From NCBI RefSeq assembly GCF_030013595.1, contig NZ_CP122771.1: 64,000 nt of DNA; one strand, written 5' to 3'. The stretch comes from Escherichia coli (GTDB lineage: Bacteria; Pseudomonadota; Gammaproteobacteria; Enterobacterales; Enterobacteriaceae). Position numbers and translations under genes: made by a program. Within the stretch, counting starts at the first letter, position 1, and each line of letters begins with the position of its first letter. Shown piece after piece: positions 31,648 through 44,707 of this stretch. The notes beneath the pieces are model-generated. The model did not search any database and had not been told where the DNA came from. It saw nothing but the letters and a program-made list of their open reading frames with translations.

Positions 31648-32241
31648 ATGGTGAAACTGATTATTTTTATTCTCATTGTTCTGATTATTGCAGCGTTACT
31701 TATCCGGATTATCCTCAGAAGTGTAAATCAGCATTCTCCTTTGCTGATGCAATTGCATGCGGCAGGTATACGGACCGGTGATGCAGAGCGAATACTGTCC
31801 AGCGGTGAATACTGGCAACGTCAGAAGACGCTGCTGACAGAAAGGGAAGTCAGTTTTATGAAAGGACTGTTCAGAATTGTGGATATGAAGCGGTGGTATC
31901 TGTGTCCGCAGGTACGGGTCGCGGATATCGTCCAGCTGAACGAGAATATCCGGCCACGATCACGCCAGTGGTGGCAGTTATTCAGAATGGTGTCTCAGTG
32001 GCATGTTGATGTGGTTATCGTTGAGCGGCGTTCGTTCAGTATTGTTGCAGCAGTAGAGCTGGATGATGCCAGCCATTTACGACCGGAACGCAGACGCCGG
32101 GATATTCTTCTGGAAGAGGTTCTGAGGCAGGCTGGTATTCCGTTGCTCAGAAGCCACGATGCCAGAAAACTGCTGCAGATGACCGGAGAATGGCTGAATA
32201 CAACAGGGGCTGATCAGCAGTCCCCGGAACATCGTAGCTGA
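31648..32241 (+). CDS. Membrane-anchored DUF2726-like (restriction-endonuclease-fold) protein
   Basis: 197 aa; N-terminal TM helix; HVDVVIVER...AVELDD resembles a PD-(D/E)xK-type core. Confidence 0.5.
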   Translation: MVKLIIFILIVLIIAALLIRIILRSVNQHSPLLMQLHAAGIRTGDAERILSSGEYWQRQKTLLTEREVSFMKGLFRIVDMKRWYLCPQVRVADIVQLNENIRPRSRQWWQLFRMVSQWHVDVVIVERRSFSIVAAVELDDASHLRPERRRRDILLEEVLRQAGIPLLRSHDARKLLQMTGEWLNTTGADQQSPEHRS

Positions 32242-33549: not shown

Positions 33550-33798
33550 ATGTCGCAGACAGAAAATGCAGTGACTTCCTCATCAGGTACAAAGCGAGCA
33601 TACAGAAAAGGTAATCCTCTGACGCTTGCAGAACGTCAGCAGGCATCCCTGGCAAGAAAACGAGCTACACATAAAGAACTCAGAGTGTTCATTCCTGCTG
33701 CGTTAAAAGCGCAATTGCAGGTGATGTGTGAAGCTGAGGGCGTTACCCAGGCTGAGATGATTGCCGAACTGATAAAGCAGAAGAGTGCTTTTAGCTAA
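33550..33798 (+). CDS. copB: CopB/RepA2 repressor of the RepFIIA replicon
   Basis: 82 aa starting [11 protein letters not shown], similar to R1 CopB; directly upstream of repA1. Confidence 0.85.
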
Positions 33799-33984
33799 CT
33801 AAAATGTAGCGACATCACATTCTTGCCTGTTTCTGGTGTGCGTGATAGATTGCTGATCGTTTAAGGAATTTTGTGGCTGGCCACGCCGTAAGGTGGCAGG
33901 GAACTGGTTCTGATGTGGATTTACAGGAGCCAGAAAAGCGAAAACCCCGATAATCTTTCTATGTTTGGCGACGAAGAAGATTAC

Positions 33985-34080
33985 CGGGGCCATCTAAAAA
34001 CCGTATAGCCAACAATTCAGCTATGCGGGGAGTATAGTTATATGCCCGGAAAAGTTCAAGACTTCTTTCTGTGCTCACTC
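33985..34080 (-). ncRNA. copA: CopA antisense RNA region (approximate)
   Basis: Position between copB and repA1 where CopA/CopT lies in IncFII replicons; boundaries not determined. Confidence 0.3.
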
Positions 34081-34108
34081 CTTCTGCGCATTGTAAGTGC
34101 AGGATGGT

Positions 34109-34966
34109 GTGACTGATCTTCAACAAACGTATTACCGCCAGGTAAAGAACCCGAATCCGGTGTTCACACCCCGTGAAGGTGCCGGAACACTGAAGTTCTG
34201 CGAAAAACTGATGGAAAAGGCGGTGGGCTTCACCTCCCGTTTTGATTTCGCTATTCATGTGGCGCATGCCCGTTCGAAGGGACTGCGTCGGCGCATGCCA
34301 CCGGTGCTGCGTCGACGGGCTATTGATGCACTGCTGCAGGGGCTGTGTTTCCACTATGACCCGCTGGCCAACCGTGTCCAGTGCTCCATCACCACGCTGG
34401 CCATTGAGTGCGGGCTGGCGACGGAGTCTGCTGCCGGAAAACTCTCTATCACCCGAGCCACCCGCGCCCTGACGTTCCTCGCAGAGCTGGGCCTGATTAC
34501 CTACCAGACGGAATATGACCCGCTTATCGGGTGCTACATTCCGACCGACATCACGTTCACACCGGCACTGTTTGCCGCTCTCGATGTGTCTGAGGTGGCG
34601 GTGGCAGCTGCGCGCCGCAGTCGTGTGGAATGGGAAAACAGACAGCGCAAGAAGCAGGGACTGGATGCACTGGGTATGGATGAACTGATAGCGAAAGCCT
34701 GGCGTTTTGTGCGTGAGCGTTTCCGCAGTTACCAGACAGAGCTTAAGTCCCGGGGAATAAAGCGTGCCCGTGCGCGTCGTGATGCGGACAGGGAACGTCA
34801 GGATATTGTCACCCTGGTGAAACGGCAGCTGACGCGCGAAATCGCGGAAGGGCGCTTCACTGCTAATCGTGAGGCAGTAAAACGCGAAGTGGAGCGTCGT
34901 GTGAAGGAGCGCATGATTCTGTCACGTAACCGTAATTACAGCCGGCTGGCCACAGCTTCCCCCTGA
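34109..34966 (+). CDS. repA1: RepA1 replication initiator (IncFII)
   Basis: GTG start giving [24 protein letters not shown]..., matching R100 RepA1. Confidence 0.9.
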
Positions 34967-35330: not shown

Positions 35331-35878
35331 GCACCTCCCACCGCAAGCGGCGGGCCCCGACCAGAAACTATTTAGTTACAACACTCAAATACAACCACCG
35401 GAAGAACCCCGGTCCCGCGCAGAACTGAAACCACAAAGCCCCTCCTCATAACTGAAAAGCGAGGCCGCCCCCGCCCAAAGGGCGGGAACAACATCGCTTT
35501 TAATTATGAATGTTGTAACTACATTATCATCGCTGCCAGTTCTCTGGCTGGAAGTCCTCAGTACACGCTCGTAAGCGGCCCTCACGGCCCGCTAACGCGG
35601 AGATACGCCCCGACTTCGGGTAAACCCTTGTCGGGACCACTCCGACCGCGCACAGAAGCTCTCTCATGGCTGAAAGCGGGTATGGTCTGGCAGGGCCGGG
35701 GATGGGTAAGGTGAAATCTATCAATCAGTACCGGCTTACGCCGGGCTTCGGCGGTTTTACTCCTGTATCATATGAAACAACAGAGTGCCGCCTTCCATGC
35801 CGCTGATGCGGCATATCCTGGTGACGATATCTGAATCGTTATATACTGTGTATATACGTAGTAATGACGAGGTGATAA

Positions 35879-36148
35879 ATGGCACAGGTTAATATGAGTT
35901 TAAGAATCGACGCTGAACTGAAGGATGCTTTTATGGCCGCTGCAAAAAGCATGGACCGTAATGGCTCTCAGTTAATCCGGGATTTTATGCGCCAGACCGT
36001 TGAACGGCAGCATAATACCTGGTTCCGTGACCAGGTTGCGGCAGGACGTCAGCAACTCGAGCACGGCGATGTGCTTCCCCATGACATGGTCGAATCTTCT
36101 GCTGCTGCATGGCGGGATGAGATGAGCAGGAAGATTGCCGGTAAATGA
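35879..36148 (+). CDS. ParD/RelB-like ribbon-helix-helix antitoxin
   Basis: 89 aa; N-terminal MAQVNMSLRIDAELKDAFMAAA typical RHH; stop overlaps next ORF (ATGA). Confidence 0.6.
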   Translation: MAQVNMSLRIDAELKDAFMAAAKSMDRNGSQLIRDFMRQTVERQHNTWFRDQVAAGRQQLEHGDVLPHDMVESSAAAWRDEMSRKIAGK

Positions 36149-36309
36149 TGGAGATATTTTGGACCATGCTGGCCAGCCAGGACAGGAAGCGCATTCGTGA
36201 GTACATTGCGGAGCAGAACCTGATGGTCGCCATTGAACTGGACGAACGGATTGGTTATTTCGGACGAACGCACCGGCTTACGCCGGTTTTACATCTGTAC
36301 TACATGTAA
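36145..36309 (+). pseudogene. Truncated ParE/RelE-like toxin
   Basis: 54-aa ORF with ParE-like N-terminus (EIFWTMLASQDRKRIREYIAEQN) ending prematurely, about half the usual length. Confidence 0.4.
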
Positions 36310-36356
36310 CCTCATACACACATAAATGAGTAACATACTGATTAATATGGTAAATC

Positions 36357-37280
36357 ATGACGATTGAAAGCTTTTTTATTGGCACCCGCCGCTCTGATAA
36401 ACGTTACGGGCCTCAGAGCAAGGATATGCAGGTTTCTGAATTCATTTCTCTGATTTCTCCCCAAAATGCCCCTCATAAGGTTGTGTTACCTGATTTTACT
36501 GGTCTGGCAATTCAGCTTGATGCACAAATCAGGAACCAGTTTCATCAACTGAAAGAGGATGAGCACTTCCTTCGATATCGGCAGTTGTCGGAAAGGTGGT
36601 ATCAGGCGGACTCTATTAGTGACAGAAACAACCGCAGTAAGCGTTTTGAGAAGATCATGGATGACTCACTTGATTTTTTGCTTTACAGCCAAGACGTCAT
36701 GCCTAACATCAATCCAGATGATCTCCAATGGCATGATTACGAAAAGGCTAGCAGTAAGGGTAAAATGTACTGTGTAGCGCTTCTGTTCCATGTCATTGCA
36801 CGGGCTGCATATGAACCCGAATCTGTGGGTAAAGATCCGACACTTCCAGAATATTGCCGGTGGATGAAAAATTGGATAGAGAAAACATTAGGTCATGATT
36901 TTTTAGATAGAATGATGATCTATTGTGCGCTGTTTGCCCCAGCGTATTTTCCCGCGTTACAACGTCTGAGCGGAGAGAAAGAAACGCGTGATGTCCATGA
37001 ATTCCTGGCTGAGCATGTTCGCACTTTAGCTCAAAAAAATTCTTCAGAGGTAAATTATAGAGATCAACGGCAATTCACGTTTGGCTACACCATGTTCACG
37101 AAGCAACAATTTGAATTTCTGGGCATGATGCGCGATGTCCATTACCGGATTGATTGTATTGAACAGCTCCTTCTGGACCTTATAGAACGTAAGGTTGTGG
37201 ATTTCACTGATGCATCTGTTGCAGGCACGTGGATTGAGAAGCAAATTCAGCGGCTTGAATCAAACGACGTAAAGCAGTAA
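36357..37280 (+). CDS. Hypothetical 307-aa protein
   Basis: Long ORF with plausible RBS; followed by hairpin 37321-37345; no motif recognised. Confidence 0.45.
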   Translation: MTIESFFIGTRRSDKRYGPQSKDMQVSEFISLISPQNAPHKVVLPDFTGLAIQLDAQIRNQFHQLKEDEHFLRYRQLSERWYQADSISDRNNRSKRFEKIMDDSLDFLLYSQDVMPNINPDDLQWHDYEKASSKGKMYCVALLFHVIARAAYEPESVGKDPTLPEYCRWMKNWIEKTLGHDFLDRMMIYCALFAPAYFPALQRLSGEKETRDVHEFLAEHVRTLAQKNSSEVNYRDQRQFTFGYTMFTKQQFEFLGMMRDVHYRIDCIEQLLLDLIERKVVDFTDASVAGTWIEKQIQRLESNDVKQ

Positions 37281-37371
37281 CCCTCTGAACTGTAAATTGG
37301 GTAGTCAGATTTAATTATTGGCACCTGTTCATAGGTGCCACCTTTCTGAAAGAATGTATCCTAATTTTTCG

Positions 37372-37890
37372 ATATCCAAACTGACCCCTATTTTAGATGT
37401 TTCATTTATCACACCCTAAAGCTGAATATTTATCACAAGCCATTTTTACCGATAAATAACTAAGGCGATCAATGCCAATGGACTTACAATAATAAACAGA
37501 TTCTTTTTTGCTATTCAGGTTCGTAACACGGGGTCTGAAGTCCAATGGAACGAAAACGTACGTTAGTGAAGTAACTGTATGATATATCAAGACATAATGG
37601 ACATAGAAAAACGCCATCAAAACGGTGTCTTTTTAATCGAAAATTGGCACTTAACGGACGGCATTGTCTACTAATCGATTTTTAGACGATAATTTTCCTC
37701 TTACCGTACATTTTCGTACGGTTGGCCCTCAAACCCCGATTTGAACTCAATCGGATAACCTGAATGCAATACCGCAATGGCGATAATTTAAAAGCGATAG
37801 CCGTTGACGCAAAATCAATCCGTTACGCATCTCTATTGGTTAAATAATGCGCTTAACGTACAAAATTTTCCCATATCCAAACTGACCCCT
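37372..37890. repeat. 18-bp direct repeats atatccaaactgacccct (37372-37389 and 37873-37890) bracketing about 500 bp of non-coding DNA
   Basis: Exact repeat read from sequence; internal palindrome accgtacattttcgtacggt. Confidence 0.6.
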
Positions 37891-37899
37891 TAAAGGACA

Positions 37900-38235
37900 T
37901 CAACACGCATTCGGCGTTTTTTCTTGTCCAATTGTGATTTTCGTGAGCTCCGTATCAGTGAAATTTCCCTTTCCTGATTCTGTGTCAAAGTCACCAGGTT
38001 TGAACCGGTGTACATCCTGCCATATAGAGAAACAGGTGTGGCAGGTGACAGGCAGTTCTCCATCAGCCACCTTTTCGCAGTTTTCAATCAGTACCCGTTC
38101 CTTATTGTATTGTAAGTTATAACCACTTGTGCAAAGCGTTTCATACCCGTGAGCGCCTGTCACGATATGTGTGGCAATCCGTTCCCTGACTTTTCCGTTC
38201 ACTAATAACTGTTCACGTGTGGTGATCGTTCGCAT
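37900..38235 (-). CDS. Hypothetical small Cys-containing protein
   Basis: Minus-strand ORF with AGGAAG RBS before second ATG; contains CHTC; coding status uncertain. Confidence 0.3.
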   Translation of the reverse strand: MRTITTREQLLVNGKVRERIATHIVTGAHGYETLCTSGYNLQYNKERVLIENCEKVADGELPVTCHTCFSIWQDVHRFKPGDFDTESGKGNFTDTELTKITIGQEKTPNAC

Positions 38236-38329
38236 TCTCTTCCTCATCAGCTTTCCTGTAGAAGCCTCCTGACTATAAGGCTCCGGATATCTTACCCGCT
38301 CATTTTGGCTGGAGGTAGTGGTGGCGTCA

Positions 38330-38572: not shown

Positions 38573-39553
38573 ATGCGTATCTTTGTAGACGACGGCTCTA
38601 CCAACATCAAACTGGCCTGGGTTGAAGACGGTGCAGTGAAAACGTTAATTAGTCCGAATAGTTTTAAGCCGGAATGGTCTATGACGCTGCAGGGACTGAC
38701 TGATGCCACTGTACCCGCTTCCGCAAACTATGAGATTGATGGAGAAAAATACAGCTTTGATCAATTGAGTCCGGATGCAGTGCGCACCACAGAAACGCGT
38801 TATCAGTACAGCGACGTTAATGTGGTTGCTATTCATCATGCGTTGATGCAGTCAGGTATTGCTCCACAACCTGTTGATATTGTTGTGACTTTACCTTTAG
38901 GTGAGTATCTGGATGAGAACGATCAGCCAAATCTGGCTAATATCGAACGTAAGAAAAATAATGTCCGGCGAACTGTAACAGTTCAGGGGCGTGAAAACTT
39001 TACCATTCGTAAAGTCAGTGTCTTGCCTGAGTCCGTGCCTGCCGGTTTTGACGTGCTGAAAGATCTGAATGATCTGGAGTCGCTGTTGATTGTTGATATC
39101 GGTGGAACGACCCTTGATATTGCACATGTCCGCAGCAAAATGTCAGGTTTCACAAAAACCTATTGTGACCCCAAGACTGGCGTCTCCATCATTACTGAAG
39201 CAGTTAAGCATGCGATGGATGTGAATGTGAGTACACGAACCAGTTCTTATTTTGCAGATCGTCTAATCCAGGGCCGGGATGACAATGAATTCCTGACCCG
39301 TTATATCCCGAATGCAGAACAGCGTGAGCGGATCCTGACAGTATTACGTGACCGGGAAAAAAAACTGCAGCATCGTGTGGCGGATTCAGTAGGACGCTTT
39401 GCTGGTTTTACTCATGTTATGGTTGTTGGCGGTGGTGCCAGCCTTGTGGCTGGGGCAGTAAAAAAAGCGACAGGAGTGGGTGATAACCGTTTCTTTGTCA
39501 GTGACAATCCTCAGTTCGATCTGGTGTTGGGAATGATGGCAATGAAGGGATGA
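38573..39553 (+). CDS. stbA: StbA/ParM actin-like partition ATPase
   Basis: 326 aa; MRIFVDDGSTNIKLAW, DIGGTTLD and VVGGGA motifs as in R1 ParM. Confidence 0.9.
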   Translation: MRIFVDDGSTNIKLAWVEDGAVKTLISPNSFKPEWSMTLQGLTDATVPASANYEIDGEKYSFDQLSPDAVRTTETRYQYSDVNVVAIHHALMQSGIAPQPVDIVVTLPLGEYLDENDQPNLANIERKKNNVRRTVTVQGRENFTIRKVSVLPESVPAGFDVLKDLNDLESLLIVDIGGTTLDIAHVRSKMSGFTKTYCDPKTGVSIITEAVKHAMDVNVSTRTSSYFADRLIQGRDDNEFLTRYIPNAEQRERILTVLRDREKKLQHRVADSVGRFAGFTHVMVVGGGASLVAGAVKKATGVGDNRFFVSDNPQFDLVLGMMAMKG

Positions 39554-39978
39554 GTATGGCTGATAATCGTAAGTGCTCTTTTTATATTTATCCGGAACGA
39601 AATGCAGCTGATCGGGTGGCTGACAGGTTTCTTGAAAAATTGCCTCAGAAAGAACGTGGTCGGGCAATGCGGGCCATGATGTTGTGTGGTGCTGCATTGA
39701 TGAAGCAGGATGAACGATTGCCGTTCCTGATAGCTGAATTCCTGACAGACAGCACGTCTATGCAGGATATTCAACGAATTATCAGTAGTACGCTACCACA
39801 ACAGGAAAATGGTGAAGTCGTTCGTTTGCTGGAGGCATTTCTGCAGTCTGCTGGTAATAATGCAAAAGCGATCCTGCCTGCGGTTGATTCTGCTACGCAA
39901 GAAATATCTGCTCCAGTCGATCAGAATCTCCTGGAAACAAGAAACAACATTAAGAACTTGTTTCCGGATGATGAATAA
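39550..39978 (+). CDS. stbB: StbB/ParR partition adaptor
   Basis: 142 aa overlapping stbA stop; similar organisation to R1 ParR. Confidence 0.8.
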   Translation: MSMADNRKCSFYIYPERNAADRVADRFLEKLPQKERGRAMRAMMLCGAALMKQDERLPFLIAEFLTDSTSMQDIQRIISSTLPQQENGEVVRLLEAFLQSAGNNAKAILPAVDSATQEISAPVDQNLLETRNNIKNLFPDDE

Positions 39979-43869: not shown

Positions 43870-44281
43870 TGATGGCGGGGAAAATCCCCGCCTTTTTCCT
43901 GCCGGTCCCCGGACAGAGCACAAAGGAAGTCGCCGCCGGCTCCGCTTTACCCGGCCATGCAGGCATGGCCTTGTGGGTTTTCAGTTATGTGGCCACAGTG
44001 TCGTGTGCGGGCTGTGCCGTGCCTCCATCTTAGCCGGGCTGGCGTTGATGCAAGGGTACGCTTCGCCGCTGCGGTCACCCGGTCCCTCCTTCCCGTCTGC
44101 CGTGATTTTCCGGTCGTTCACCCGCTCAGATTTCGCGGTCTCACCCTCCAACTCCCGCCAGCCGTGTGCGTCAGGCTGCGGCTTCCCTTGCGCCCTGTGC
44201 ATCCCCGCCTTATCGCCCGGCTTTTATGGAGGCACGGCACCGCCCGGTGTCGCGGAATATGTGAACAACGGAGGAAATCCC

Positions 44282-44707
44282 ATGCAGTATGCAAAATCTG
44301 TCATTCTGAACGTTGAAGAGTGCGACCGTCTGTCTTTTCTGCCTTACCTGTTTGGCAACGATTTTCTGTATGCCGAGGCATCTGTGTACGCGCTGGCGAA
44401 AAAAATGATGCCGGAATATGAAGGCGGATTCTGGCACTTCATCCGCCTGCCGGACGGTGGCGGTTACATGATGCCGGATGGCGACCGTTTTCATCTGGTC
44501 AACGGTGAAAACTGGTTTGACCGTACGGTCAGCGCCGATGCCGCAGGCATCATTCTGACCTCCCTTGTGATTAACCGCCAGTTGTGGCTGTACCACGACA
44601 GCGGGGATGCGGGACTGACACACCTGTACCGGATGCGCGATGCGCAGTTGTGGAGCCACATCGAATTTCACCCCGAATGTAACGCGATTTACGCGGCACT
44701 GGACTGA
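44282..44707 (+). CDS. ardB: ArdB/KlcA-like antirestriction protein
   Basis: 141 aa starting [33 protein letters not shown]; recognised as ArdB/KlcA family from memory. Confidence 0.75.

Follow-up and report, generated by a model that had tools for sequence, protein, structure and literature searches.

ORF307, an open reading frame (ORF) at positions 36357..37280 (+) of a 64,000-nucleotide stretch of Escherichia coli plasmid DNA (NCBI RefSeq assembly GCF_030013595.1, contig NZ_CP122771.1; hereafter the window, at its full length), is a stand-alone candidate gene for defence or inter-element conflict that belongs to a new protein family, a reading that we favour on sequence comparison at somewhat less than even confidence. 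The gene has an ATG start and encodes a protein of 307 aa that is predicted to be soluble and all-alpha, with no transmembrane segment. A preliminary description, made from the sequence alone, had given this position, strand, start codon and length, all of which match the window exactly. It had also viewed ORF307 as an orphan single-gene module lying between a toxin remnant and a partition locus, and this was borne out: the gene occupies a variable position of the plasmid maintenance region, with yacA and a yacB remnant upstream and parM and a parR-like gene downstream.

An isolated family of helical proteins

The preliminary description had recognised no domain in ORF307, and this held for NCBIfam, PADLOC, Pfam, PHROGs and PDB sequences, none of which contained a usable match. 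NCBIfam gave no match at all, and the best hits in PHROGs (E 0.065) and in a Pfam hmmscan of ORF307 (Phage_pRha, i-E 0.74) were noise. For the Pfam comparisons the cut-off was an i-E <= 10 for ORF307 and an E <= 0.1 for the other members of an alignment of 25 sequences (A2); scanning each of the 25 members gave nothing relevant. A search of PDB sequences returned nothing with an alignment designated A1 and one chance match (E 0.27) with A2. NCBIfam, Pfam and PDB sequences showed no relationship with housekeeping or plasmid-maintenance proteins, the counter-evidence that the preliminary description had named. Its statement that no function could be assigned from sequence likewise stands, in that neither the libraries nor the profile searches gave one.

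The relatives of ORF307 are few and closely bounded. A word-indexed search retrieved 19 clusters of homologues, and an exhaustive search of 1.84 billion representative proteins recovered only 29 family representatives. When a larger profile built from 41 sequences was run at E <= 10, 35 proteins were found, every one of them a family member; nothing lay between E 1e-45 and E 10, and no bridge to any Pfam family emerged. The family amounts to ~40 protein clusters and is sharply isolated; every named member is annotated 'hypothetical protein', and a literature search by protein accessions found no papers. Judged by these comparisons, ORF307 is the founding member of an orphan family outside every described family tested. 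Its hosts are confined to the Enterobacterales (Escherichia, Shigella, Salmonella, Klebsiella, Enterobacter, Citrobacter, Leclercia, Raoultella, Kosakonia, Pectobacterium, Pantoea and Morganella) plus Aeromonas, and some homologues lie in chromosomal islands or prophage-like regions without rep or par genes.

The comparisons also indicate that ORF307 is a genuine conserved gene and not a chance ORF, because full-length homologues of conserved length exist (21-67% identity, 286-341 aa) and purifying selection is apparent at long range. The ratio of non-synonymous to synonymous substitution rates (dN/dS) was 0.11 between ORF307 and its 67%-identical homologue, where dS was saturated; two closer pairs gave 0.39 and 0.63. 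Against a truncated allele from an enterotoxigenic E. coli (ETEC) plasmid (36357-37001 vs L029:2883-3527; homologue loci carry the prefix L) the ratio was ~2.2, calculated from 3 synonymous and 25 non-synonymous changes. Selection thus appears purifying overall, and close alleles change fast in amino-acid sequence; in the case of the ETEC allele, either selection is relaxed in the shortened copy or the alleles are diversifying. Fairly high dN/dS values between close pairs are common in conflict genes. In addition, the intact 307-aa frame is 98-100% conserved over dozens of plasmids from varied hosts and continents.

AlphaFold2, run with the 25-sequence alignment, predicted an all-alpha bundle of ~12 helices and two short strands, with a mean predicted local distance difference test score (pLDDT) of 79.7 and a predicted template modelling score (pTM) of 0.81. 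The N-terminal ~50 residues were poorly modelled, yet they hold the conserved residues R11, G18, P19, P45 and D46. Only W81, L142, L143 and R149 were invariant in the 41 sequences, with R264, D160, Y74, Y138 and E269 nearly so, and the conserved arginines R149 and R264 would lie on the long core helices. The protein is hydrophilic overall, with an isoelectric point (pI) of 5.9 and a grand average of hydropathy (GRAVY) of -0.58. No membrane-spanning segment was detected: the Kyte-Doolittle 19-mer maxima of 1.12 (residues 183-201) and 0.99 (139-157) are below the usual threshold of ~1.6. According to the model, then, ORF307 is a cytoplasmic, all-alpha protein.

A Foldseek search of AFDB50 with this model gave, beyond the family itself, ~12 full-length matches with template modelling (TM) scores of 0.63-0.72 and E-values from 1e-7 to 2e-5. 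These relatives, the only convincing ones in structure, are uncharacterised proteobacterial proteins of ~300 aa, from Achromobacter, Burkholderia, Pandoraea, Pseudomonas and other genera. A single match (E 1e-6) carries the name 'HEPN AbiU2-like domain-containing protein' and is the sole, indirect link to a named family. AbiU2, encoded by the AbiU locus of Lactococcus lactis, typifies a HEPN family (PF18734) from a Lactococcus abortive-infection system (PMC3710099). Any resemblance of the model to JukB, PirB or Cry, which are pore formers, seems to be at background level. A separate 'HEPN family' lead in plasmid pEK499 was rejected: the HEPN nuclease of that plasmid is an unrelated 166-aa protein at a different locus.

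Gene exchange behind toxin-antitoxin modules

The gene upstream of ORF307, yacA (35879..36148, +), encodes a RelB/DinJ-family antitoxin of the ribbon-helix-helix (RHH) type and carries this name in near-identical plasmids. It is followed by a remnant of yacB (36145..36309, +), a RelE/ParE-type toxin gene, in which the first ~38 codons (to ~36259) are authentic and foreign sequence then continues to a stop at 36309. Alignment with an intact yacB-yacC pair placed the breakpoint after codon ~38 of 92, and RefSeq records list the remnant as a pseudogene lacking its C-terminus. The yacA region is common to thousands of plasmids, and megablast homology ends inside yacB at query position 460, which is window position 36259. 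A total of 1815 plasmids matched 36200-37450; only 37 of these cover at least 80% of it, i.e. carry ORF307. In the one intact yacAB backbone that was inspected the gene order is yacA-yacB-yacC, where yacC encodes a 282-aa 3'-5' exonuclease, and relative to this single comparator ORF307 holds the yacC position. Its present place is immediately 3' of yacA.

The block formed by yacA and the yacB remnant is bracketed by direct repeats, which were detected in a repeat search. The left copy (35730..35778, +; ~49 nt), just upstream of yacA, lies at the end of the IncFII basic replicon and includes a G+C hairpin followed by GTTTTAC; a terminator scan called a terminator-like site inside it, at 35739-35753. 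The right copy (36272..36310, +) follows directly after the yacB breakpoint and is a diverged version of this replicon-end sequence. Both copies share an identical 15-nt core (ACCGGCTTACGCCGG), and the right one has lost 10 bp (CGGGCTTCGG) that are still kept in the ETEC plasmid L029, which has a different RepA and the same junction as the window. Since the block is bracketed in this manner, recombination between replicon-end sequences is indicated, and ORF307 arrived with a low-GC segment of ~1.3 kb through a recombination event that truncated yacB. The GC content of ORF307 and its flank, 0.42-0.44 vs 0.46-0.61 over the flanking replicon region, fits acquired cargo.

A comparable arrangement recurs around homologues of ORF307. 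We compared 18 contexts, comprising 17 loci in a neighbour clustering and L029, which repeats the window junction. The all-against-all comparison of neighbours in the 17 loci gave no universal partner gene; RHH proteins, a ~200-aa protein, thermonucleases (SNase) and ATPases were recurrent without being universal, and a tblastn search did not find the recurrent neighbours of the homologues in the window. In 7 of the 18 contexts, an antitoxin-type DNA-binding gene starts the co-directional genes immediately upstream of the family member, and at least four unrelated types are represented: yacA (the window and L029), vapB-vapC at a distance of 48 bp (the Klebsiella plasmids L013 and L036), a gene for a 193-aa RHH protein 156 bp away (L002 and L033), and, 5 bp away, one for a protein of 334 aa whose N-terminus is of the RelB/DinJ type (Aeromonas, L006). 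The possibility that the last protein is a paralogue of ORF307 was rejected on comparison, and Pfam found only a weak RelB N-terminus in the 193-aa and 334-aa neighbours. L002 and L013 resemble each other over no more than ~25 nt before the start codon, and therefore the gene appears to move without a promoter of its own.

The vapBC loci provide the clearest view of this exchange (L035:5636-8922 vs L036:6309-7942 and L013:7309-8942). The vapC gene of plasmid pA708-2 (L035) aligns with those of L036 and L013 through the stop codon, after which the sequences diverge at once: L035 continues with GajA and GajB, the two proteins of Gabija (PADLOC E-values 1e-102 and 1e-46), and L036 and L013 continue with a family member. 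Because Gabija and the family replace each other after vapBC, and yacC and ORF307 alternate after yacA, the comparisons show the family behaving as exchangeable cargo docked 3' of toxin-antitoxin (TA) modules and interchangeable with a bona fide defence system, as far as sequence can tell. The likeness between the two cases lies in the way the sequences of related plasmids part, right after vapC or inside yacB, and a different accessory unit comes next. It does not extend to the units themselves: Gabija consists of an ATPase-nuclease and a helicase with no sequence or structural relation to ORF307, and yacC encodes an exonuclease, whereas ORF307 is a single, unrelated helical protein without an enzymatic motif.

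Homologues are also found in the company of other immune genes. In L013 and L035 (L013:1713-5696; L035:1-3998), the gene for a distant paralogue of ORF307, 341 aa long, comes 318-336 bp after that for a Ppl-like ATPase of 873-884 aa (a partial PADLOC match to Ppl of 118 bits; RefSeq name 'TrlF family AAA-like ATPase'), and the two may form a two-gene unit. The 67%-identical copy of ORF307 resides on large plasmids of ~280-425 kb, and in the one examined (L030, IncHI2-typed) it and a ParA gene are divergently oriented; a RES toxin gene is nearby, as is the anti-phage gene ppl, full-length (1785 bits) and 4.7 kb from the family copy. A pair of 160-aa and 667-aa proteins, the larger an OLD/AriA/PtuA/GajA-like ATPase, occurs in two unrelated islands (L018:5453-7948 and L024:2473-4968), 52 bp upstream of the family member in L018 (Pectobacterium) and 2 kb upstream in L024. 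Further systems near family members were CBASS (SMODS+S_4TM; L002 and L024), type I restriction-modification (L006 and L025), Zorya I with a TIR protein (L036), Abi_C/AbiJ-like and putAbiC/AbiP-like genes (L024 and L016) and several TA loci.

Three further observations concern these neighbourhoods. A loose protein family with RHH or RelB-like N-termini and variable C-termini lies within 8 kb of members in 8 of the 17 loci (e.g. L002:7263-7844, L033:6263-6844, L006:6991-7995, L024:10535-11116, L027:1864-2835 and L034:1363-2289) and is immediately upstream in three; apart from the weak RelB N-terminus it has no Pfam or PADLOC identity. SNase genes are located just 3' of members in L016 (10439-10813), L033 (9710-10204) and L034 (7935-8459), and in Leclercia the SNase gene and the family gene share 29 bp at the end of the latter, an overlap suggestive of co-expression. 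In pEK499 (L023), vapBC adjoins an AAA ATPase and a UvrD helicase as well.

The distribution of the gene is that of mobile elements. Among 5426 complete E. coli genomes 72 were carriers, and all 84 places in them were on plasmids, with none chromosomal; at least 80% of the gene was present in just 49 genomes. By tblastn, 155 plasmid records (112 conjugative) contained homologues; these plasmids came from Escherichia, Klebsiella, Enterobacter, Citrobacter, Salmonella and other hosts, IncHI2- and IncR-typed plasmids included. Members outside plasmids occurred in integrative and conjugative elements (ICEs), genomic islands and prophage-like regions. No family member was present in 50,697 GenBank phage genomes or in IMG/VR, and a phage origin was rejected on these grounds.

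Possible functions of ORF307

The preliminary description had remarked that single genes in this position are frequently abortive-infection or anti-defence genes. The defence side of this idea gains circumstantial support from homologues in defence-rich islands, from Gabija in the corresponding slot of a sister plasmid and from the structural relative annotated as AbiU2-like; the anti-defence side is less favoured, for reasons given below. ORF307 would then be a swappable accessory 'conflict' cargo, most likely of the abortive-infection type, directed against phages and possibly against other mobile elements. In such a scheme, its protein would be kept at a low level behind the autoregulated yacA promoter and would be inert until an invading element triggers it, upon which either the cell or the invader would be arrested. 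The N-terminal 50 residues, R149 and R264 are the prime candidates for the surfaces that would bind the trigger and act as effector.

As for the activity itself, the guess ranked first is an action on RNA in the manner of AbiU2/HEPN proteins, at a low probability because the Rx4-6H motif is missing; non-enzymatic binding or sequestering seems just as improbable, and membrane perturbation more improbable still. Pore-forming helical bundles such as Cry domain I, PirB and JukB have a hydrophobic membrane-spanning helix or hairpin that was not found in ORF307, and no adjacent jukA (Cbp3-like, DUF3944), which encodes the sensor that partners the effector JukB in the Juk system, was seen among the genes with Pfam annotation at the homologue loci. 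It is conceivable, if rather doubtful, that ORF307 represents a new stand-alone immune or conflict family without a known catalytic motif, non-canonical and possibly non-enzymatic, which plugs in behind TA/RHH regulators or Ppl-/OLD-like ATPases. The regulators would be those of one subfamily and the ATPases those of others, and the carriers would be plasmids of enteric pathogens typed as IncF, IncHI2 and IncR. Accessory modules of a single gene in a plasmid defence/TA hotspot are of a familiar kind; the family itself is undescribed.

Several observations weigh against a role in defence or conflict. None of the 5027 defence-protein models of PADLOC-DB v2 matched ORF307 at E <= 1, and for ten distant members at E <= 10 the only hit was a noise match to DrmC (0.063). 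The AbiU2 link derives from a single automatically named AlphaFold DB entry, none of the 25 members scanned matched the Pfam HEPN_AbiU2 family (PF18734), and the HEPN Rx4-6H motif is absent: neither the 25- nor the 41-sequence alignment contains a conserved histidine, including 4-6 residues after R149 or R264. Defence and TA genes are dense on mobile elements anyway, so their association with the family is weak evidence. Moreover, coverage of the gene was partial in 23 of the 72 carrier E. coli genomes, and several of the partial copies inspected abut insertion sequence (IS) elements, for instance a 232-aa version in ETEC plasmids. The window copy finally has a weak Shine-Dalgarno sequence (tggtaaatcATG), unlike the purine-rich AGGA/GGAG-type sites of the seven homologues that were checked. 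Partial copies and a poor ribosome-binding site could equally mean a decaying, unselected passenger.

Other expression signals of the window copy are modest as well. No sigma-70 consensus promoter was found between 36260 and 36356; a TAATAT box at 36343-36348 makes a leaderless start conceivable but unsupported. The likely source of transcription into the cargo slot is yacA. Between yacA and ORF307, the right repeat copy forms a hairpin of 6 bp (36272-36287) with UUUUAC after it, perhaps a weak terminator, which may attenuate read-through from yacA. Expression of ORF307, if any, is probably low, because the Shine-Dalgarno sequence is weak, no consensus promoter is present, the TA promoter upstream is autoregulated and a weak hairpin intervenes. 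The preliminary description had further credited ORF307 with a hairpin terminator of its own. The hairpin is real (37319..37340, +; 9 bp with a UUCA loop, 39 nt past the stop codon, fold z-score -1.65), but it is at best a non-canonical terminator: its tail (ACCUUUCUG) is not a U-run, and the terminator scan did not call it.

Other functions were weighed against the same body of evidence. An accessory subunit (sensor, specificity or regulatory) of an ATPase-led defence system, with the window copy as a solo version that acts in trans or with no partner, is suggested by the 341-aa paralogue directly 3' of the Ppl-like ATPase, by the OLD-like pair upstream of members in L018 and L024 and by the full-length Ppl near the IncHI2 copy. 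The ORF307 subfamily (>=50% identity), however, had an adjacent ATPase in none of the nine contexts examined, the ATPases near the paralogues belong to different families, and at most loci the nearest 8 kb contain no ATPase. The annotation of a near-identical plasmid over window positions ~23800-50600 (~12 kb on each side) likewise contains no Ppl-, OLD- or Gabija-type ATPase, and we consider this explanation unlikely. Ppl itself is a single-protein anti-phage ATPase; Ppl or Ppl-like genes lie within 5 kb of members in three loci from two independent contexts, and in two of the three the Ppl-like ATPase gene is directly upstream of the paralogue, but ORF307 has neither an ATPase neighbour nor similarity to Ppl, and the link runs via distant paralogues only. 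A slightly smaller probability goes to a factor acting between plasmids (fertility inhibition, exclusion or an aid to incompatibility) against co-resident or incoming conjugative elements. Occurrence restricted to plasmids, ICEs and islands, with conjugative plasmids in the majority, and, in IncFII and IncHI2 plasmids, a place close to the modules for replication and partition are what such a factor would lead one to expect. The transfer-inhibition gene tir of R100 is similarly situated, just past the IncFII replicon. ORF307, on the other hand, lacks similarity to any named protein, and members also occur in prophage-like regions and beside the phage-directed systems CBASS and Zorya.

An anti-defence or establishment gene, which would help the plasmid to evade host immunity after transfer, is improbable to a similar degree. 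ORF307 shares its orientation with the antirestriction, methylase and ssb genes of the leading region further along, the islands L018 and L025 contain antirestriction and RadC genes too, and the elevated dN/dS fits an arms race. It nevertheless appears to lie outside the leading region proper, ~12 kb from ssb and ~7 kb from the antirestriction gene, beyond parMR and adjoining the replicon; it is missing from every phage collection searched; a protein of 307 aa with a pI of 5.9 is not small and is unlike the typical small acidic DNA mimics; and the alternative occupant of the vapBC slot is a defence system and not an anti-defence gene. We give no more weight to a functionless hitch-hiker, i.e. 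a decaying passenger ORF without a current role in the window plasmid. The signs of decay would be the weak Shine-Dalgarno sequence (in the window copy only), the missing promoter, the carriers with partial copies only, several of them beside IS elements, and the dN/dS of 2.2 against the truncated ETEC allele; the 307-aa frame, however, is intact and highly conserved over dozens of plasmids, and purifying selection acts on the family at large. Least probable of all, in our estimate, is a toxin-like protein in a hybrid addiction module of the TA style, controlled by YacA in the window and by the upstream RHH proteins elsewhere. The antitoxin-type proteins upstream in 7 of the 18 contexts and the apparent mobility of the gene without its own promoter (L002/L013) speak for such a module. 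Yet at least 10 contexts, several of them with divergent or IS neighbours, contain no antitoxin-type neighbour, and a constitutively toxic protein could not persist there. YacA is moreover the cognate antitoxin of YacB, with nothing to suggest that it binds ORF307, and the conserved adjacent cognate antitoxin of type II TA toxins was not found for the family in the 17 loci.

If ORF307 is indeed a defence gene, it would add to the plasmid immune repertoire a new single-protein family without a detectable sequence relative. The plasmids concerned circulate in ETEC, Shigella, Klebsiella and Enterobacter, and such a function would have a bearing on phage-therapy host range and on plasmid ecology. 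Should the AbiU2-like tie be confirmed without the HEPN catalytic motif, it would point to a non-RNase branch of the fold; should the gene prove inert, it would be a well-documented orphan and nothing more. The locus also illustrates how TA modules can act as docking points, for yacC or ORF307 after yacA(B) and for Gabija or a family member after vapBC.

Surrounding features of the window

ORF307 is situated next to an IncFII replicon comprising copB (33550-33798), the CopA antisense RNA (33936-34024; Rfam match of 91 bits) and repA (34097-34966). In a near-identical plasmid, the annotated genes flanking ORF307 are yacA, a gene for a hypothetical protein, and parM/parR. In the window parM is located at 38573-39553 and is followed by the parR-like gene, the two together covering 38573-39978. 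The gap between ORF307 and parM is 1.3 kb of non-coding or mosaic sequence that includes a minus-strand ORF of 115 aa (37900-38247), convergent with ORF307. This ORF, a hypothetical protein in the annotation of near-identical plasmids, has no NCBIfam match and belongs to the parM-side segment that is common to plasmids without ORF307. Closer to ORF307, on its 3' side, lies an AT-rich tract (37350-37650; GC 0.34), and in the sister plasmid CP122741 the IS66-family element ISEc23 is inserted in the corresponding region. Short stretches within 37530-37889 each match different, unrelated plasmids.

Two genes farther from ORF307 have relatives in the islands that carry its homologues. A DUF2726 protein encoded upstream of the replicon (31648-32241) has a homologue in the Pectobacterium island L018, and the ORF at 43973-44707 is homologous to the antirestriction protein (PF03230) of island L025.

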